From assembly GCA_013112575.1 (NCBI GenBank), contig JABFGG010000021.1:15663-79662 (forward strand): DNA of 64,000 nucleotides, given 5' to 3'. Position numbers and translations under genes: made by a program. Below, piece after piece: positions 1 through 6,088 of this stretch. This stretch comes from Chloroflexota bacterium (GTDB lineage Bacteria; Chloroflexota; Anaerolineae; Anaerolineales; UBA11579). Below the pieces are notes generated by a model, which saw only the letters and a list, made by a program, of their open reading frames with translations, made no database searches and was not told where the DNA came from. Position 1 is the stretch's first letter. Every line of letters begins with the position of its first letter.

Positions 1-145
1 TCCTGTAGGATTTATAAAACCAATCAGAGTATTTTGCAAACCTATATAGCTGCCCCTTCGATAAACGGCTTAGATAGGAAAGGTCTTCCAACGAGTCAAT
101 CTTTGGTAAATCGAACAATGATAAACGATATTTATCGGAAGACAT
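1..145 (-). CDS. Retron reverse transcriptase, N-terminus only (runs off the window)
   Basis: Manual translation from ATG at 145: MSSDKYRLSLFDLPKIDSLEDLSYLSRLSKGQLYRFAKYSDWFYKSYR. Resembles the Ec86 RT N-terminus as I recall it (FRLRNLGLPVMNNLHDMSKATRIS...FRYRIY) and lies directly downstream of the msr/msd. Catalytic YADD is not visible in the window. Confidence 0.8.
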   Translation of the reverse strand, partial: MSSDKYRLSLFDLPKIDSLEDLSYLSRLSKGQLYRFAKYSDWFYKSYR

Positions 146-162
146 AACAAATGGAAAAAGTG

Positions 163-312
163 TAGCACTACCCTTACTTCAACCACCAATGCAAGCGAAC
201 TTAATCCATGGCGGAGCCATGGTGGGTGTTCGCTTGCAAATAATGAACTGGTTTTAGCCTCGGGCGACGAATCATCACCCACTGATGCAAGCATCGTCTA
301 AGGGTAGTGCTA
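163..312 (-). ncRNA. Retron msr-msd ncRNA
   Basis: Perfect 14-bp a1/a2 inverted repeat: tagcactaccctta (163-176) / taagggtagtgcta (299-312). Minus strand reads ACCCTTAG with the putative branching G at 298. Two short msr hairpins (284-295, 262-280). Long msd hairpin: 190-200 pairs with 228-238, inner stem 206-212/216-222. Confidence 0.9.
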
Positions 313-331
313 AATATAATTATTCATATTA

Positions 332-1243
332 TTATCGAGAATGCAAGGGCTTATCTCTCAGTTGCCAATTTAATATTCGCATACGTATTGAATCCATAGA
401 TTCCAAATCAAACGTATACCCCTTAGTCCCACTCGTTCCTAATTCATGAAATGTTTCTAGTCCAGAGGGAGTCAACTCGATACCATTGGGACTTATTGTT
501 ATATCTTTTCTTCTGGTTAAGACTGAAATTGCCGTTCGCGTTAAGGCTTCAGCAACTTTCTTTTCTTTATTTGATGCATGCATTACAAGGTCAATGAGGT
601 CATCCATAATTATTGGTTCGAGCAAATATACGCATGAAAGTACATAAAGGTATGCATCCACAATATTTGAAACACCTGAAGGCTTTTCAGATTTTTGAGC
701 AACTTGCTTTATTGCTTTGCGAATATTTGCCATTTCTGATGCGATATCATCGAAATCGGCGAATACAACTTTTCCTTCTTTTGTATCTTTCATCAATCTT
801 AATGGCCCGTAATTTATGAAGCTTTTGTCTTTCTTAAACTCTCTATTCACAACACAAACTATTTTCTTACGTAACTCTTTGTGGCTTGAAAAAACCCCCA
901 ACTCAGCGACTGCCCCGTAGCTTTCAAGAGCTATTAATATAACATCAACACTTTCAGCTAATATACTCTCTAGTGAAATTAAGTCCTGTCTTGAATGCCC
1001 GAGAAGTAAGTTCTCAAAGATTTCTTCAGCAAAAACAATTTGATAGGCATACCTATACCAAATTAACTCTGGCAAGTATTCTGCAATCTGTTGACGTATG
1101 CTACCTTCATCATTGTCACCAGCTCCACACAAAAATATTGTTACTCGTGAGTCTTTATATCTTTTATAAGCCGCTTCGTGAATTTGATTTGCTAACTTCC
1201 TCATAAAAAATGTCCAATATTTATAATCCTTGTGGTTCCCCAA
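332..1243 (-). CDS. Retron type II-A effector (NDT-like N-glycosidase + winged helix; Ec86/St85 effector family)
   Basis: Motifs TIFLCG, LLLG..QDLISLESILAESVDVI, ESYGAVAELGVFS, KSFINYGPLRL and C-terminal ELTPSG parallel the Ec86 effector; ~300 aa; AT-rich. Start may be TTG 1243 or ATG 1204. Confidence 0.88.
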   Translation of the reverse strand: MGNHKDYKYWTFFMRKLANQIHEAAYKRYKDSRVTIFLCGAGDNDEGSIRQQIAEYLPELIWYRYAYQIVFAEEIFENLLLGHSRQDLISLESILAESVDVILIALESYGAVAELGVFSSHKELRKKIVCVVNREFKKDKSFINYGPLRLMKDTKEGKVVFADFDDIASEMANIRKAIKQVAQKSEKPSGVSNIVDAYLYVLSCVYLLEPIIMDDLIDLVMHASNKEKKVAEALTRTAISVLTRRKDITISPNGIELTPSGLETFHELGTSGTKGYTFDLESMDSIRMRILNWQLRDKPLHSR

Positions 1244-1439
1244 TATGACTATCTCATGATCGTTTATTCAAAATCATATTTGTGGGAGTTAAAAAAACAT
1301 TAGTCTTCATAATACGAGATTTGTTGTAATGTATCAATAGGAAAAGAAGTTAATAGTATGGAAACTCTGGCGGAAGTAAATAATATTTGTTATTGTATAA
1401 ATATGGTATTTTTATCGTACTTCCCGAAACAACACGAAG

Positions 1440-1614
1440 TACATTAAGGGTACATACGGGTACATTAATTAGCCCCTTTTTCGCCCTTTCCACCACCAGT
1501 ACCGCCACATCCTCCGCCCTCTCTTCCCTCACCCCCCACATCTGTTATTCCGGCAAAAACCCGCCAGCCCAAATCATGCAACACCCTACATTAACTACAT
1601 ACGGTACATTAATT
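1440..1614. repeat. Imperfect direct repeat pair at the retron island boundary
   Basis: tacattaagggtacatacgggtacattaatt (1440-1470) and tacattaactacatacggtacattaatt (1587-1614). Confidence 0.6.
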
Positions 1615-1702: not shown

Positions 1703-2698
1703 TTAGCTGTTTTCCAGGTCACGTATTGCAGGGATACCGCCAAGAGAAGTCGCCGCCCGCACTCCCCGCAAAATGGCCTCCGTCACCACCTGCGCCGCAA
1801 AAGCCCCCACAATATTGACATCCGCTTTTTTCTTACCCGTCGCCAGTGAAAAGATCGTATCCCCATCCATCATCGTGTTCGCCGGGCGGATGCTGCGCAC
1901 CAACCCATTTTGCGCCATCTGCGCCATTTTAGTGGCCTGCTCCTTATTCAATTTCGCATTGGTTGCCACCACACCGATCACCGTATTCTGCCGTGACGCC
2001 AACCCCATGATCGTCCTGCCCACCAAGCCCCGCGTCACCTCAAGCGTATCCGCAAATAACCCCTCCCCGATCTTCAGCGGGCCTTTCTTGATGCTGCGCG
2101 CCCCCGCAATGATCTCATTTTTTTCCGGGTTGATCACATCCCCAAAGGCATTCACCGCCACAATGGCACCCACCACCACGCCCCCGCCGATCTCCATGCT
2201 GGCCGTACCAATGCCGCTTTTCACAGCTTGCCCGCCCCCCAGTATCTTCCCCACCGTTGCTCCTGTGCCGGCCCCCACGCTGCCCTCTGCTGGCGCATCA
2301 CTGTTGGCGTTCAAGCAGGCCTGATAACCCATGTCAGCATCGGGGCGCACGTCCGCGCTGCCAATGCCCAGGTCAAACAAGATGGCTGCTGGCACGATAG
2401 GCACGCGCGCCACACCCACATTGAATCCGATCTTCTTTTCTTCCAGGTATCGCACCGCACCGCCGGCTGAGTCAAGTCCAAAAGCCGAACCCCCGGAAAG
2501 CACAATGGCATGCGCCTTATCCACCAGATGCACGGGATGCATGGCATCCACCTCGCGGGTACCGGGTGCCCCGCCGCGTTGGTCCACACCGCCCACGGCC
2601 CCATCGGGGCAGAGAATAACCGTACAACCTGTGATAGCCTCCAAGTCCTGCGCATGCCCTACTTGAATGCCTTTGATATCTGTAATTGAATTATTCAT
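1703..2698 (-). CDS. P1 family peptidase (DmpA-like Ntn hydrolase)
   Basis: NSITDI.GIQVGHA, RGGAPGTRE, LSGGSAFGL, GSVGAGTGA, NT nucleophile site, DGDTIF. Confidence 0.9.
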   Translation of the reverse strand: MNNSITDIKGIQVGHAQDLEAITGCTVILCPDGAVGGVDQRGGAPGTREVDAMHPVHLVDKAHAIVLSGGSAFGLDSAGGAVRYLEEKKIGFNVGVARVPIVPAAILFDLGIGSADVRPDADMGYQACLNANSDAPAEGSVGAGTGATVGKILGGGQAVKSGIGTASMEIGGGVVVGAIVAVNAFGDVINPEKNEIIAGARSIKKGPLKIGEGLFADTLEVTRGLVGRTIMGLASRQNTVIGVVATNAKLNKEQATKMAQMAQNGLVRSIRPANTMMDGDTIFSLATGKKKADVNIVGAFAAQVVTEAILRGVRAATSLGGIPAIRDLENS

Positions 2699-2714
2699 TG
2701 ACTTTCCTCTACCT

Positions 2715-3899
2715 CTATTTCACGATCAACTCTGTCTGTGGCTCACTCAGGAACACGCAGCCATCATCGGTAACCAGCACATCTTCTTCCAGACCGATGT
2801 AGCCGTAGCCTTCGACCATCAGGCCCGGTTCAACTGTAAAAACCTGCCCGGCTTCGAGGGGCATGTCGGGTAAGTTGCCGTACTTCTCCCACTTGGGGCC
2901 CAATAGCGCGCCGCCATCGTGAGCTTCGCGGCCCAGTTGGTGACCGAGCGCATATTTGAATTCGGGGTAGCCCGCGTCTGTGACGATGTCGCGGGCGATG
3001 TCGTCAATACTTTTACCGGTGACACCGGGCCGCATGGCCTTGACGGCTTCCTGAACGGCCAGCACGATGGTATCGAAACCGCGCTGTACAGCTTCTGGAA
3101 CCTGATCTTCGTCCTCTGCCTTTACATACATGACACGCTGGATGTCGGAACAGTATTCGTCCTGACGCACACCAAAATCAAAGTGCACAAGTTGGCCTGC
3201 TTTGACTTCGAGCTCTGTAGGGCCGACGTGACCAATGGGACTGTCTGCCCCGGCGTTGACGGTGGGGCAGTGGTTCAACTCCCAGGCAGGTTCAACACCG
3301 TATTCTTGCAGCTTGCCGTGCATAAAAGCACTGATATCCAATTCACTGCGACCCGGCTGCGTATAGCCAAAGGCTTCCTGGTAGATAGCTTCGGTGGTGT
3401 GAATGGCTTGTTTGACGCGTTCAATCTCGCTGGGAGTTTTGCGGCCGCGCAGTGCGCCGATCACATCTGCGGCTGAGACAAGCCGGCTTGCATAGGGCGT
3501 ACCCTCAAAATGTTCGAGCAAGGTCAGGTACATACCGTGGCTGAGGCCGTCGGCATGCACGTTGTCGGTAGAATAATTGATGGCAATCTGAGCCGGGTCG
3601 AGCCGCGTGATGGTTTCCAACAATAGCTCGCGGATGCCTTCATCATAGGTCAGGATAGTGTTGTAGGCTCCCAGGCGCTGCACTGTGTCCTCTTCCAGCC
3701 GCCCGGCGATGGCGATGCTCTCACCCGTTTTGGTGATGATCAGGGCACTGGGCCAGGTCAGATTGTGACCATAGATCAAAGGCAGAATGGGGTCTTCGCC
3801 CGCACTGGTCTCGCGCACGAAAGTCATCCAGAGGTCGACGTCCAGTTCCTGGAGGATGCCAATAGCCTGCTTTACTTTTTCCTGTACGATGCTGGTCAT
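2715..3899 (-). CDS. M24 family Xaa-Pro peptidase
   Basis: DFGV..DEYCSDIQR, GHQLGREAHD, TVEPG, LEEDVLVT metal-binding motifs. Confidence 0.9.
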   Translation of the reverse strand: MTSIVQEKVKQAIGILQELDVDLWMTFVRETSAGEDPILPLIYGHNLTWPSALIITKTGESIAIAGRLEEDTVQRLGAYNTILTYDEGIRELLLETITRLDPAQIAINYSTDNVHADGLSHGMYLTLLEHFEGTPYASRLVSAADVIGALRGRKTPSEIERVKQAIHTTEAIYQEAFGYTQPGRSELDISAFMHGKLQEYGVEPAWELNHCPTVNAGADSPIGHVGPTELEVKAGQLVHFDFGVRQDEYCSDIQRVMYVKAEDEDQVPEAVQRGFDTIVLAVQEAVKAMRPGVTGKSIDDIARDIVTDAGYPEFKYALGHQLGREAHDGGALLGPKWEKYGNLPDMPLEAGQVFTVEPGLMVEGYGYIGLEEDVLVTDDGCVFLSEPQTELIVK

Positions 3900-6088
3900 G
3901 CGTCTTCCTCACCTGTTTTTATTGGTCGACTATCATCCGTGATCCACTCGCTCCATGAACCGGGATATATTTTGGCCTCGCCCAATCCGGCATGCAATAC
4001 TGCGAGGGCGTTGTGTGCGGCGGTTACACCGGAACCGCAATAGAAGATCAGATTCTCGGCAGCATGTTTCTCTAGGAGGGATGCAAATCGGCCACGTAAT
4101 TCATCAGGGGTCTTAAAGCCAGTTTCGTTTACGTTGCCAGCGTAGGGGAGGTTGACTGCCCCGGGGATGTGCCCGGCAACGGGATCGATGGGTTCCTCAT
4201 CACCGCGGTAACGCTCCGGCCCGCGCGAATCGACCACAACGTAATTGGGGTCAAGTAAGACACCTAAGACCTTATCTGCATCTGCTGCCAGCTCATCTTG
4301 CAGGGATGGGCTAAATGTCCGGGGTTGATTTCCTTCTTCCCCGGAAACCGTATCAAATTTAGCAGCCTGCCAGGCGGCCCAGCCCCCATCGAGCACGGCC
4401 ACGGCATTATGCCCCAGCCAGCGCAGCATCCACCATAAGCGAGCTGCATAGGCGCCACTCAGGTCGTCGTAAACCACCACCTGCACATTTTCATCAATGC
4501 CCCAGTTTGACAGTTTGTCGACGAATTCATCGATGGATGGCAGGGGGTGGCGGCTGGTCTTTCCTGGGATGATTTGGCCGGACAGGTCTTCGTCCAGGTG
4601 AGCGTAGACCGCGCCCGGGATGTGGGCCTGCAAGTAGGCCTTTCTTCCATATTCCGTATCGTCTAGAGAAAAGCGGCAATCTACGATCACCCATTCCTTA
4701 TTTCCTGATTGGGTTTGAAGCTCATTTACAGAAATCAGGGTTTCAAACTTCATCTTGCACCTTTGCAGTAAACGGCGGTTGCTTATAAAGAGGGTCAGTG
4801 CATCCGCACCCATCGAGAGGGTCACGGCCAGCACGGCCATGGTGATGCCCGGCATCTGGATGCTGACCCCAATCGTCAGCACGGTGATGAGGACGATCAG
4901 ATCAACGATCATGCCTAATGTAACAGGTAACGTATTTCCTTTAGCCGTCAGCGTACCGCGATAATAGCTCATCCAGGCCATGAAAATGGGTAAGAGAATG
5001 CCCAATTGCGCACCCGTTTTTGCCAGGCCCGCCAGGGTGTCATTGACCCCGATCATATCCTTGAAGTAGAAATCGGACAGTGGCGTAAAGACAACCAGCA
5101 ACAAGAGGCCGATGACCACCAGGCTCATACGCAGGCTGAAGGTCCACAGAGCATTGCGGCTATCCTTCTCTTCATGTAAGGCAATGACGACTTCAGGCAA
5201 GGCCATGCCGGGCGCTCGCGAATAAAACAACAGACCGTTGAGCACTGGCCAGGCAGCCAGGTTGATCTCCGGGTTGGGGCTGCGCGCAAGGGCTGCCCCG
5301 ATCAGCGGGTAGGTGAAGAGGAAGAGGGTGCTGGTGGCTGCCAGGGGGGTGTGAAACCTGACCAGCCCGTTATAGCTTAAATCGGGCAAATCACGTTGTT
5401 CAGCTTGTGGGCCAAAATGCTCTTTGAGCGTGGCACGGGAGACCCAATGGGCGTAGACCGCTTCGAAGATGACGCCCACGCTGAGAGCTAAGGTTCCGAC
5501 CTCCACACCGGAAAACAGACCAGAAAAGGCAGCGAGTGTCGCCACGCCCACTGAGCCGACCAGGCGTACAATTGTGCCCTGGCCGACGTAACGCGTTTTT
5601 CCATAACGAATGAGGATGCCCTGAATGAAACGTCGCCAGGCGATGGCCGCGCTCCATGGAATCATCAATTGCAAGCCCAGGCGAATGGGTTCGATCAGGG
5701 TTTCCGGGACGCGCATCAATTGCACGATGACCAGGTCGAAGAGGGGTGTAAACCCCATGAGGATGTGCACGATGGTGGTCAGGATCATTAGATGGATCGT
5801 GAAACGCCTAAGCACCAGATAATGCTGGCGGTTGCGCGCCTTGGCCGTACTGGTGGAGAGCAGATTGATGACGGGGCTTTCAATAGTGATGCTGATAGCG
5901 GCCACCACACCAAAGGCGGCGATCATACGCTCGGCTTCTGAGATGCGCGCCAGCATAGCGTTGACGTAGGGCATCTCACTGGCCATCAAGAGCCAACTGG
6001 CTGCCAGGGGTAACCAGTACAGGAAAATGCGACGCTGGCTGAGCGAAGGCGCTGGTGTTGTGTTGAGGGCTTCAACGTTTTGTGCCAT
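3896..6088 (-). CDS. MATE/ANKH-like membrane protein in one frame with a tandem-rhodanese sulfurtransferase (SseA-like; internal ATG at 4753)
   Basis: N-terminal ~445 aa multi-TM. C-terminal part has HIPGA, RHPLP, ARLWW, GHIPGA, YCGSGVTA and YPGSWSEW. Confidence 0.75.
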   Translation of the reverse strand: MAQNVEALNTTPAPSLSQRRIFLYWLPLAASWLLMASEMPYVNAMLARISEAERMIAAFGVVAAISITIESPVINLLSTSTAKARNRQHYLVLRRFTIHLMILTTIVHILMGFTPLFDLVIVQLMRVPETLIEPIRLGLQLMIPWSAAIAWRRFIQGILIRYGKTRYVGQGTIVRLVGSVGVATLAAFSGLFSGVEVGTLALSVGVIFEAVYAHWVSRATLKEHFGPQAEQRDLPDLSYNGLVRFHTPLAATSTLFLFTYPLIGAALARSPNPEINLAAWPVLNGLLFYSRAPGMALPEVVIALHEEKDSRNALWTFSLRMSLVVIGLLLLVVFTPLSDFYFKDMIGVNDTLAGLAKTGAQLGILLPIFMAWMSYYRGTLTAKGNTLPVTLGMIVDLIVLITVLTIGVSIQMPGITMAVLAVTLSMGADALTLFISNRRLLQRCKMKFETLISVNELQTQSGNKEWVIVDCRFSLDDTEYGRKAYLQAHIPGAVYAHLDEDLSGQIIPGKTSRHPLPSIDEFVDKLSNWGIDENVQVVVYDDLSGAYAARLWWMLRWLGHNAVAVLDGGWAAWQAAKFDTVSGEEGNQPRTFSPSLQDELAADADKVLGVLLDPNYVVVDSRGPERYRGDEEPIDPVAGHIPGAVNLPYAGNVNETGFKTPDELRGRFASLLEKHAAENLIFYCGSGVTAAHNALAVLHAGLGEAKIYPGSWSEWITDDSRPIKTGEEDA

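Follow-up and report, generated by a model that had tools for sequence, protein, structure and literature searches.

The window analysed here is a stretch of 64,000 nucleotides (nt) from a Chloroflexota genome (genome G000, contig C21, positions 15663-79662), and its left edge carries a retron related to Ec86 (Retron-Eco1) of Escherichia coli. All parts of this retron are read on the minus strand. They comprise a gene for an NDT-like effector (332..1204), a retron non-coding RNA (ncRNA; msr-msd) bounded by the complementary arms a1 and a2 (163..312), and a reverse transcriptase (RT) gene whose first 48 codons fall at 1..145, with 827 nt more lying past the left end of the window. The contig was read further to the left in two extracts, L001 (C21 14163-18462) and L002 (C21 3663-19662; L002 positions equal window positions plus 12000), and in the list of open reading frames (ORFs) the whole RT gene, encoding 323 amino acids (aa), occupies C21 14836-15807 (L001 674-1645). 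A first-pass annotation, made from the letters of the window, had proposed an intact Ec86-like type II-A retron in Chloroflexota DNA. Both proteins and the RNA match that type, more exactly type II-A3, and the phylum agrees with a second genome of the same family (G016), which belongs to Anaerolineales, an order of Chloroflexota.

The RT had been proposed from an N-terminus opening at the ATG at 145, with missing RT motifs or a frameshift further left named as one way in which the proposal could fail. The 48-aa part inside the window by itself matches the RT_II-A model (E 3.6e-6), and in the extended contig the 323-aa ORF is unbroken, with no stop and no frameshift, and contains the RT motifs. 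The full protein is best matched in PADLOC by RT_II-A PDLC02941 (378.9 bits, E 4.1e-114), with RT_XIII as the next family at 277 bits. The two remaining RT_II-A models score about 157 bits below PDLC02941, and the best 25 PADLOC matches are all retron RT models. The protein also matches Pfam RVT_1 (E 3.1e-24) and scores 273.6 bits against NCBIfam NF038233, for which the curated cutoff is 235. The matches in the PDB are retron RTs, led by the Ec86 RT (E 1.8e-78) and followed by Ec78 (7e-31), and identity to the BL21 Ec86 RT is 42% over 314 residues. The RT_II-A model has a single match in the whole genome.

A YADD box and a VTG region had been predicted for the leftward part of the contig. The VTG region is there, as RRVTGL, but the catalytic box reads YGDD, with both aspartates kept and glycine as the middle residue. 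At region X, the motif of which we take to be NAxxH, the protein reads NVKPH. A quick RT tree of 49 rows was built without L003 (a duplicate of L005, the retron of the Anaerolineales sequence OY776212.2), without L039 and L052 (in which the contig stops within the RT) and without L032 and L037 (no RT). In this tree the window RT pairs with L005 (SH-aLRT 94) and then with two loci from uncultured bacteria. The group that they form stands beside the clade of Ec86 and gammaproteobacterial RTs, at a fork that has a support of 94 and is drawn open.

The effector gene, noticed from the start as a minus-strand gene of about 300 aa, corresponds to the ORF at 332-1243, which matches both the Ec86 effector and the type II-A model. 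From its TTG start the ORF encodes 303 aa. The 290-aa database form of the protein (P0001) begins at the ATG at 1204, which is the more likely start. The protein covers positions 5-271 of the 272 positions of the PADLOC model NDT_II-A PDLC02930 (E 3.8e-74) and scores 163.6 bits against NCBIfam NF038232, 'retron St85 family effector', which has a cutoff of 100. In the PDB the sole family matched is the Ec86 effector (7v9x_C, in two sequence variants; E 7.5e-38 over residues 16-298). The alignment, at 30% identity over the full length, spans residues 12-294 of the Ec86 effector, thus taking in the NDT-like N-terminal domain and the C-terminal DNA-binding lobe, and includes E106, which sits in the active site of the Ec86 effector (10.1101/2023.08.16.553469). 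The glutamate aligned to E106, encoded at 902-904, is of the catalytic type and occupies an invariant column among 20 homologues. Standard annotation models thus already name both proteins, and the retron extends a known family.

Between the two genes lies a perfect 14-base-pair (bp) inverted repeat with arms at 163-176 (a2) and 299-312 (a1), 122 nt apart. It bounds the 150-nt structured RNA that had been recognized at 163-312. The fold of 155-315 has a free energy of -72 kcal/mol, as against -41.1 +/- 3.8 kcal/mol for 200 shuffled sequences (z -8.1), and none of the shuffles was as good. Several elements of a retron RNA can be placed within it by the repeat, the fold and the alignment of relatives. 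The a1 arm ends in TTA and is directly followed by the predicted 2'-OH branching (priming) guanine at 298; the msr stem-loop, which is conserved better than any other part of this RNA family, occupies 261..281; and the a2 arm is further marked by covariation. A search of the locus against Rfam returned no family at E <= 1.

The relatives of the locus allow the structure of this RNA to be assessed by comparison. A screen of 50 loci (49 relatives and Ec86) asked for an a1/a2 stem of at least 9 bp, counting G-U as a pair, with TA at its end and G next to it; 32 loci passed, and two gave no candidate. An unanchored stem with G-U pairs proved too generous to serve as a control (a stem of at least 9 bp was found in 2139 of 3060 shuffles) and was not used. 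L051 was dropped because of its implausible span, and the remaining 31 loci, cut on the branching guanine and a2, were aligned both alone and together with the window. In the window-free alignment (A3, 31 relatives) the invariant positions are TAG, that is, the last two bases of a1 and the branching guanine; several positions in the msr; and GTA, the guanine before a2 and its first two bases. Across the a1/a2 stem and msr stem-loop of these relatives, 99.1% of 558 cells are paired and both partners vary in 13 of the 18 pairs. None of 500 shuffles paired as highly and slid controls gave 44.6-51.8%, although the a1/a2 contribution to the paired fraction is partly circular because the rows had been chosen for a1/a2 complementarity. 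The msr stem-loop, on which no selection was made, pairs in 98.8% of its cells, and five of its eight pairs show changes on both sides.

A covariance model (R1) was built from Ec86 and 30 relatives with the window excluded, and it constitutes an independent test of the window RNA because it was derived from these 31 relatives only. R1 matches the minus strand of the window at 167-308, end to end, with 59.9 bits (E 5.1e-8), and this is its only match in the window and in the whole genome. Outside the set from which it was made, R1 detects the RNA in 18 of 22 loci, the exceptions being L032, L033, L049 and L057.

The boundaries of the msd template were predicted by homology with Ec86. When the columns of the 86 nt that precede GTA-a2 in Ec86 are transferred to the window, they give a putative template of about 75 nt that runs from 252 down to 178. 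The msdDNA of Ec86 is given as 85 nt in a later structural study (PMC12673091). The predicted msd DNA folds into a hairpin of 11 bp plus 7 bp at -19.9 kcal/mol, with its arms within 190-238.

Two promoter-like sequences accompany these features on the minus strand. A candidate promoter for the ncRNA at 319..346, read from the sequence, consists of TTGCAT (346-341), a 16-nt spacer and AATAAT (324-319), and overlaps the last codons of the effector gene. Its AATAAT ends 20 nt before the branching guanine, a spacing at which transcription would start at or near the first base of a1. A comparable arrangement (TTGCAA, 17 nt, AATAAT) is present in L005, at the same distance from its branching guanine as in the window. 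Upstream of the effector gene, a consensus scan found a second candidate at 1309..1337, TTGATA-17-TATTAT, with 10 of 12 matches to the consensus; the scan gave six sigma-70-type sites in the region in all, below the mean of 8.6 for shuffled sequence.

The retron, which the first-pass annotation had described as lying in AT-rich DNA, sits on an AT-rich island of 2,476 bp. The guanine-plus-cytosine (GC) content is 0.34-0.40 over L002 11001-13500 and about 0.45-0.61 outside, and the island begins 1,036 nt to the left of the window and reaches position 1439, so that its in-window part is 1..1439. The neighbours of the island are ordinary genes on the same strand. There are no tRNA genes in the 16 kilobases (kb) around it, and no integrase-like ORF was seen by eye in the ORF list, the ORFs of which were not searched against families. 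L005 is likewise found on an AT-rich block (GC 0.30-0.35 versus 0.56-0.63), with its RT at about 3555-4520.

Two further observations concern the edges of the island. A dispersed repeat of about 175 nt (window 1440-1612), which may be MITE-like or REP-like, abuts its right edge, and the ends of this repeat bear GGTACATTAATT as a direct repeat. Counting this copy, it matches 36 places in the genome at 67-100% identity, and the depth over it climbs to about 1900-2060 in sequencing run X7. In the same run, a contig of depth 44.6 that differs at two bases, L002 10920 and 10925, joins L002 10963 to 13440 and thereby skips 2,476 nt, exactly the AT-rich block, and the island-bearing contig of X7 has a depth of 86.1. 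No target-site duplication is present at the joint. The shorter side of the joint measures 28 letters where 30 are advised, and the apparent empty site is therefore taken as a hint only that the island may be polymorphic, present or absent, at the strain level.

With both genes unbroken, both proteins and the RNA placed in one family and the RNA structure conserved, we consider it very probable that the locus is a complete type II-A3 (Ec86/Retron-Eco1-like) retron on a 2.5-kb horizontally acquired cassette in an Anaerolineales genome. Several observations nevertheless weigh against this view. The YGDD box of the RT stands where nearly all relatives have another sequence: a motif-pattern scan of 52 related loci matched 47 (the unmatched ones being L032, L033, L037, L039 and L052), and YADD is present in 46 of these and YSDD in the remaining one, L005, which is the nearest relative. 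The effector has Phe-Ala before the invariant Glu60 where at least 90% of the 20 homologues have Tyr-Pro. The predicted msd contains no CCWGG (CCAGG or CCTGG) and no GATC. The consensus scan listed no sigma-70-type promoter before the ncRNA, the candidate described above having been read by eye. Expression was not seen either: no RNA run is listed among those that contain this stretch, and the one RNA run from the same sample has almost none of its words.

Some of these points would fit a decaying or inactive retron, in which the ORFs are still open but the activity of the RT (through YGDD) or of the effector (through Phe-Ala) has been lost, the whole being a remnant that the population is losing. 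The window RT is the only one with YGDD, the effector departs from its homologues at two near-invariant columns, and one contig of X7 appears to skip the island. However, both ORFs are full length and free of stops, both proteins score above the curated cutoffs of their families, and the RNA has kept its perfect 14-bp a1/a2 repeat together with all the conserved elements. In addition, the serine of L005 is a small residue at the same position of the RT, which suggests that the glycine is a tolerated variant of the lineage. Decay is thus, in our estimate, quite unlikely.

A foreign AT-rich island might also have been joined to an Anaerolineales contig by an error of assembly or binning. The sharp drop in GC content at the island would be expected from such an error, and the high-copy repeat at the right edge breaks contigs there. 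Yet all the words sampled from the locus stretch occur in each of 12 listed sequencing runs (X1-X12), and a 2,579-nt contig of X7 (record 28) crosses the left junction and includes 74 nt of flank; the right junction is not independently confirmed because it is bridged by 29 letters only in the contigs shown. Moreover, the nearest relative of both proteins is found in another Anaerolineales genome, on a similar AT-rich island. An artefact is therefore very improbable, and a horizontally acquired, type II-A3 cassette remains the preferred reading.

The arrangement of the parts was at first thought to be unusual, since an order of ncRNA, RT and effector had been assumed for Ec86 and a gene order with the effector in front seemed to depart from it. 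The annotated Ec86 locus of E. coli BL21 (L056), reached by searching E. coli genomes with a relative from Serratia, reads otherwise. On its plus strand a 'retron St85 family effector protein' is annotated at 1417-2340 and an RT at 2578-3465, translation from 2503 yields the 320-aa Ec86 RT, and the a1/a2 repeat lies between effector and RT at 2328-2496. Ec86 itself thus has the order effector, ncRNA, RT. The same order prevails in the family. In a scan of effector relatives that took one genome per species and yielded 51 loci, the RT is downstream of the effector on the same strand in 49, with a gap of 116-210 nt in 48 of them; in L050, which has a truncated effector match, the gap is 481 nt. 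One exception, in a Binatia metagenome-assembled genome (MAG; L032 2501-2986), retains only about the first 163 residues of the effector, has neither an RT nor an ncRNA match, and is probably a remnant. The other, a gammaproteobacterial locus (L037 2477-4684), has an effector and an ncRNA (R1 match at 3369-3525, E 5.1e-6) but no RT; where the RT would be expected there is an apparently unrelated ORF of 343 aa, read from the other strand. In Mestre et al. 2020 (PMC7736814) Ec86 is assigned to II-A3, a type written there as 'II-A3 (Nuc_deoxy+Retron)'. The order effector, ncRNA, RT is the canonical order of Ec86-type retrons, and a new architecture distinct from Ec86, with the effector first and the ncRNA intergenic, has virtually no chance of being correct: nothing was found in its favour, it rested on the assumed order, and it is contradicted by BL21 Ec86, by 49 of the 51 related loci and by the published type.

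What is known of Ec86 suggests how the type II-A3 retron of the window may work. In Ec86, the RT and the multicopy single-stranded DNA (msDNA) keep the N-glycosidase effector in an inactive filament, and a change made to the msDNA by a phage activates the effector, leading to hydrolysis of NAD(P)+ or depletion of adenine derivatives (PMC12673091; 10.1101/2023.08.16.553469). By homology, the ncRNA of the window would be transcribed from the region between effector and RT genes, and the a1/a2 stem would present the guanine at 298. The RT would prime on the 2'-OH of this guanine and copy the msd of about 75 nt into a hairpin msDNA, and RT and msDNA together would bind the NDT-like effector and keep it inactive. 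A phage activity that alters the msDNA may then release or activate the effector, which would cleave NAD(P)+ or adenine nucleotides at their N-glycosidic bonds and bring about abortive infection, a defence known within this type for Ec86 only. The synthesis and length of an msDNA, toxicity, defence and the trigger at this locus are all predicted here by analogy with Ec86.

The trigger described for Ec86 is methylation, by a phage Dcm, of CCTGG in the msDNA stem (10.1101/2023.08.16.553469). As the msd of the window has no CCWGG, this trigger cannot apply as such. Moreover, among 32 msd regions of the family CCWGG is found in Ec86 and in a Pectobacterium copy only, and the Dcm site is therefore a trait of Ec86 and not of the family. 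With the site absent from nearly all members, the known Ec86 trigger is not general. The window msd carries CCATGG on both arms of its apical stem. CCATGG occurs in three of the 32 msd regions, against a mean of 0.30 in shuffled sequences; this comparison was made post hoc, and related rows are not independent. One could imagine from these features that the Ec86-like branch in Anaerolineales is a naturally re-targeted sensor, with glycine or serine in its YxDD box, a shorter msDNA and CCATGG in place of the Dcm site, answering to another DNA-modifying activity of phages (for example, a CCATGG or CATG methyltransferase) and carried on a recombinase-less 2.5-kb cassette that is gained and lost beside a 175-nt repeat. 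This idea is speculative and, in our judgement, rather unlikely to hold as a whole.

The Ec86-like family is rare in Chloroflexota, with two strong matches among 461 genomes. The NDT_II-A model is matched in two of 61 genomes of close relatives, the genome of the window and G016. The latter belongs to the same family, and its locus (L003) is contained in OY776212.2, an Anaerolineales MAG. In a sample of the phylum it is matched in two of 401 genomes, namely that of the window and, in part, G116. The G116 locus (L057, contig C1 764668-764979) covers 103 of 272 positions of the model (E 1.7e-16) in a frame of 193 aa, has no R1 match, and could be either a remnant or an NDT-like protein of another kind. 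The family as a whole is spread much more widely: about a dozen phyla are represented among the 51 loci, including Bacteroidota, Pseudomonadota, Nitrospinota, Nitrospirota, Planctomycetota, Bacillota, Chlorobiota, Ignavibacteriota, Thermodesulfobacteriota, Omnitrophota, Margulisiibacteriota and Chloroflexota. The phylum column for II-A3 in the classification table of Mestre et al. (PMC7736814) gives Proteobacteria and Firmicutes.

The locus gives the Ec86-like (II-A3) retrons a well-supported representative in Chloroflexota, and the survey extends the same cassette, with the same order and a covarying ncRNA, over these phyla. The picture of how a retron is built is unchanged by it. Of modest interest are the YGDD/YSDD variant, the msd without a Dcm site and the possible insertion/deletion polymorphism, and for tool builders the locus offers a divergent RT (42% identical to that of Ec86) with a compact predicted msd of about 75 nt.

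Among known systems, the type II-A1 retrons (Retron-Sen2/St85, Vch2 and Eco3) share with the window an NDT-like effector with a C-terminal DNA-binding domain, but according to the same classification (PMC7736814) their RTs belong to clade 1 as opposed to clade 9, and their ncRNA is of type IA/IIA1. Retron-Eco1 (Ec86) of E. coli B/BL21, itself a II-A3 retron, is much closer. It has the order effector, ncRNA, RT, with proteins 42% (RT) and 30% (effector) identical to those of the window, an a1 arm ending in TTA and followed by the branching guanine, the msr stem-loop, GTA at a2, and the E106 to which a glutamate of the window effector corresponds. The window differs from Ec86 in having YGDD instead of YADD, a predicted msd of about 75 nt instead of 85-86 nt, and an msd stem with a duplex CCATGG and without the Dcm site CCWGG. 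In the window, 19 nt separate the stop of the effector gene from a1; the BL21 effector gene instead runs into its a1 arm. The BL21 copy stands beside phage genes, while that of the window is a bare 2.5-kb island in a Chloroflexota host. The nearest relative is the retron of OY776212.2 (L005), the RT and effector of which are 56% and 49% identical to those of the window. The two share their gene order and an AT-rich island of similar size, and the a1/a2 repeat of L005 measures 15 bp. They differ in the catalytic box (YSDD in L005, YGDD in the window), in the sequence of the msd and in their genomic neighbours, none of the four flanking proteins of the window that were tested having a hit at L005.

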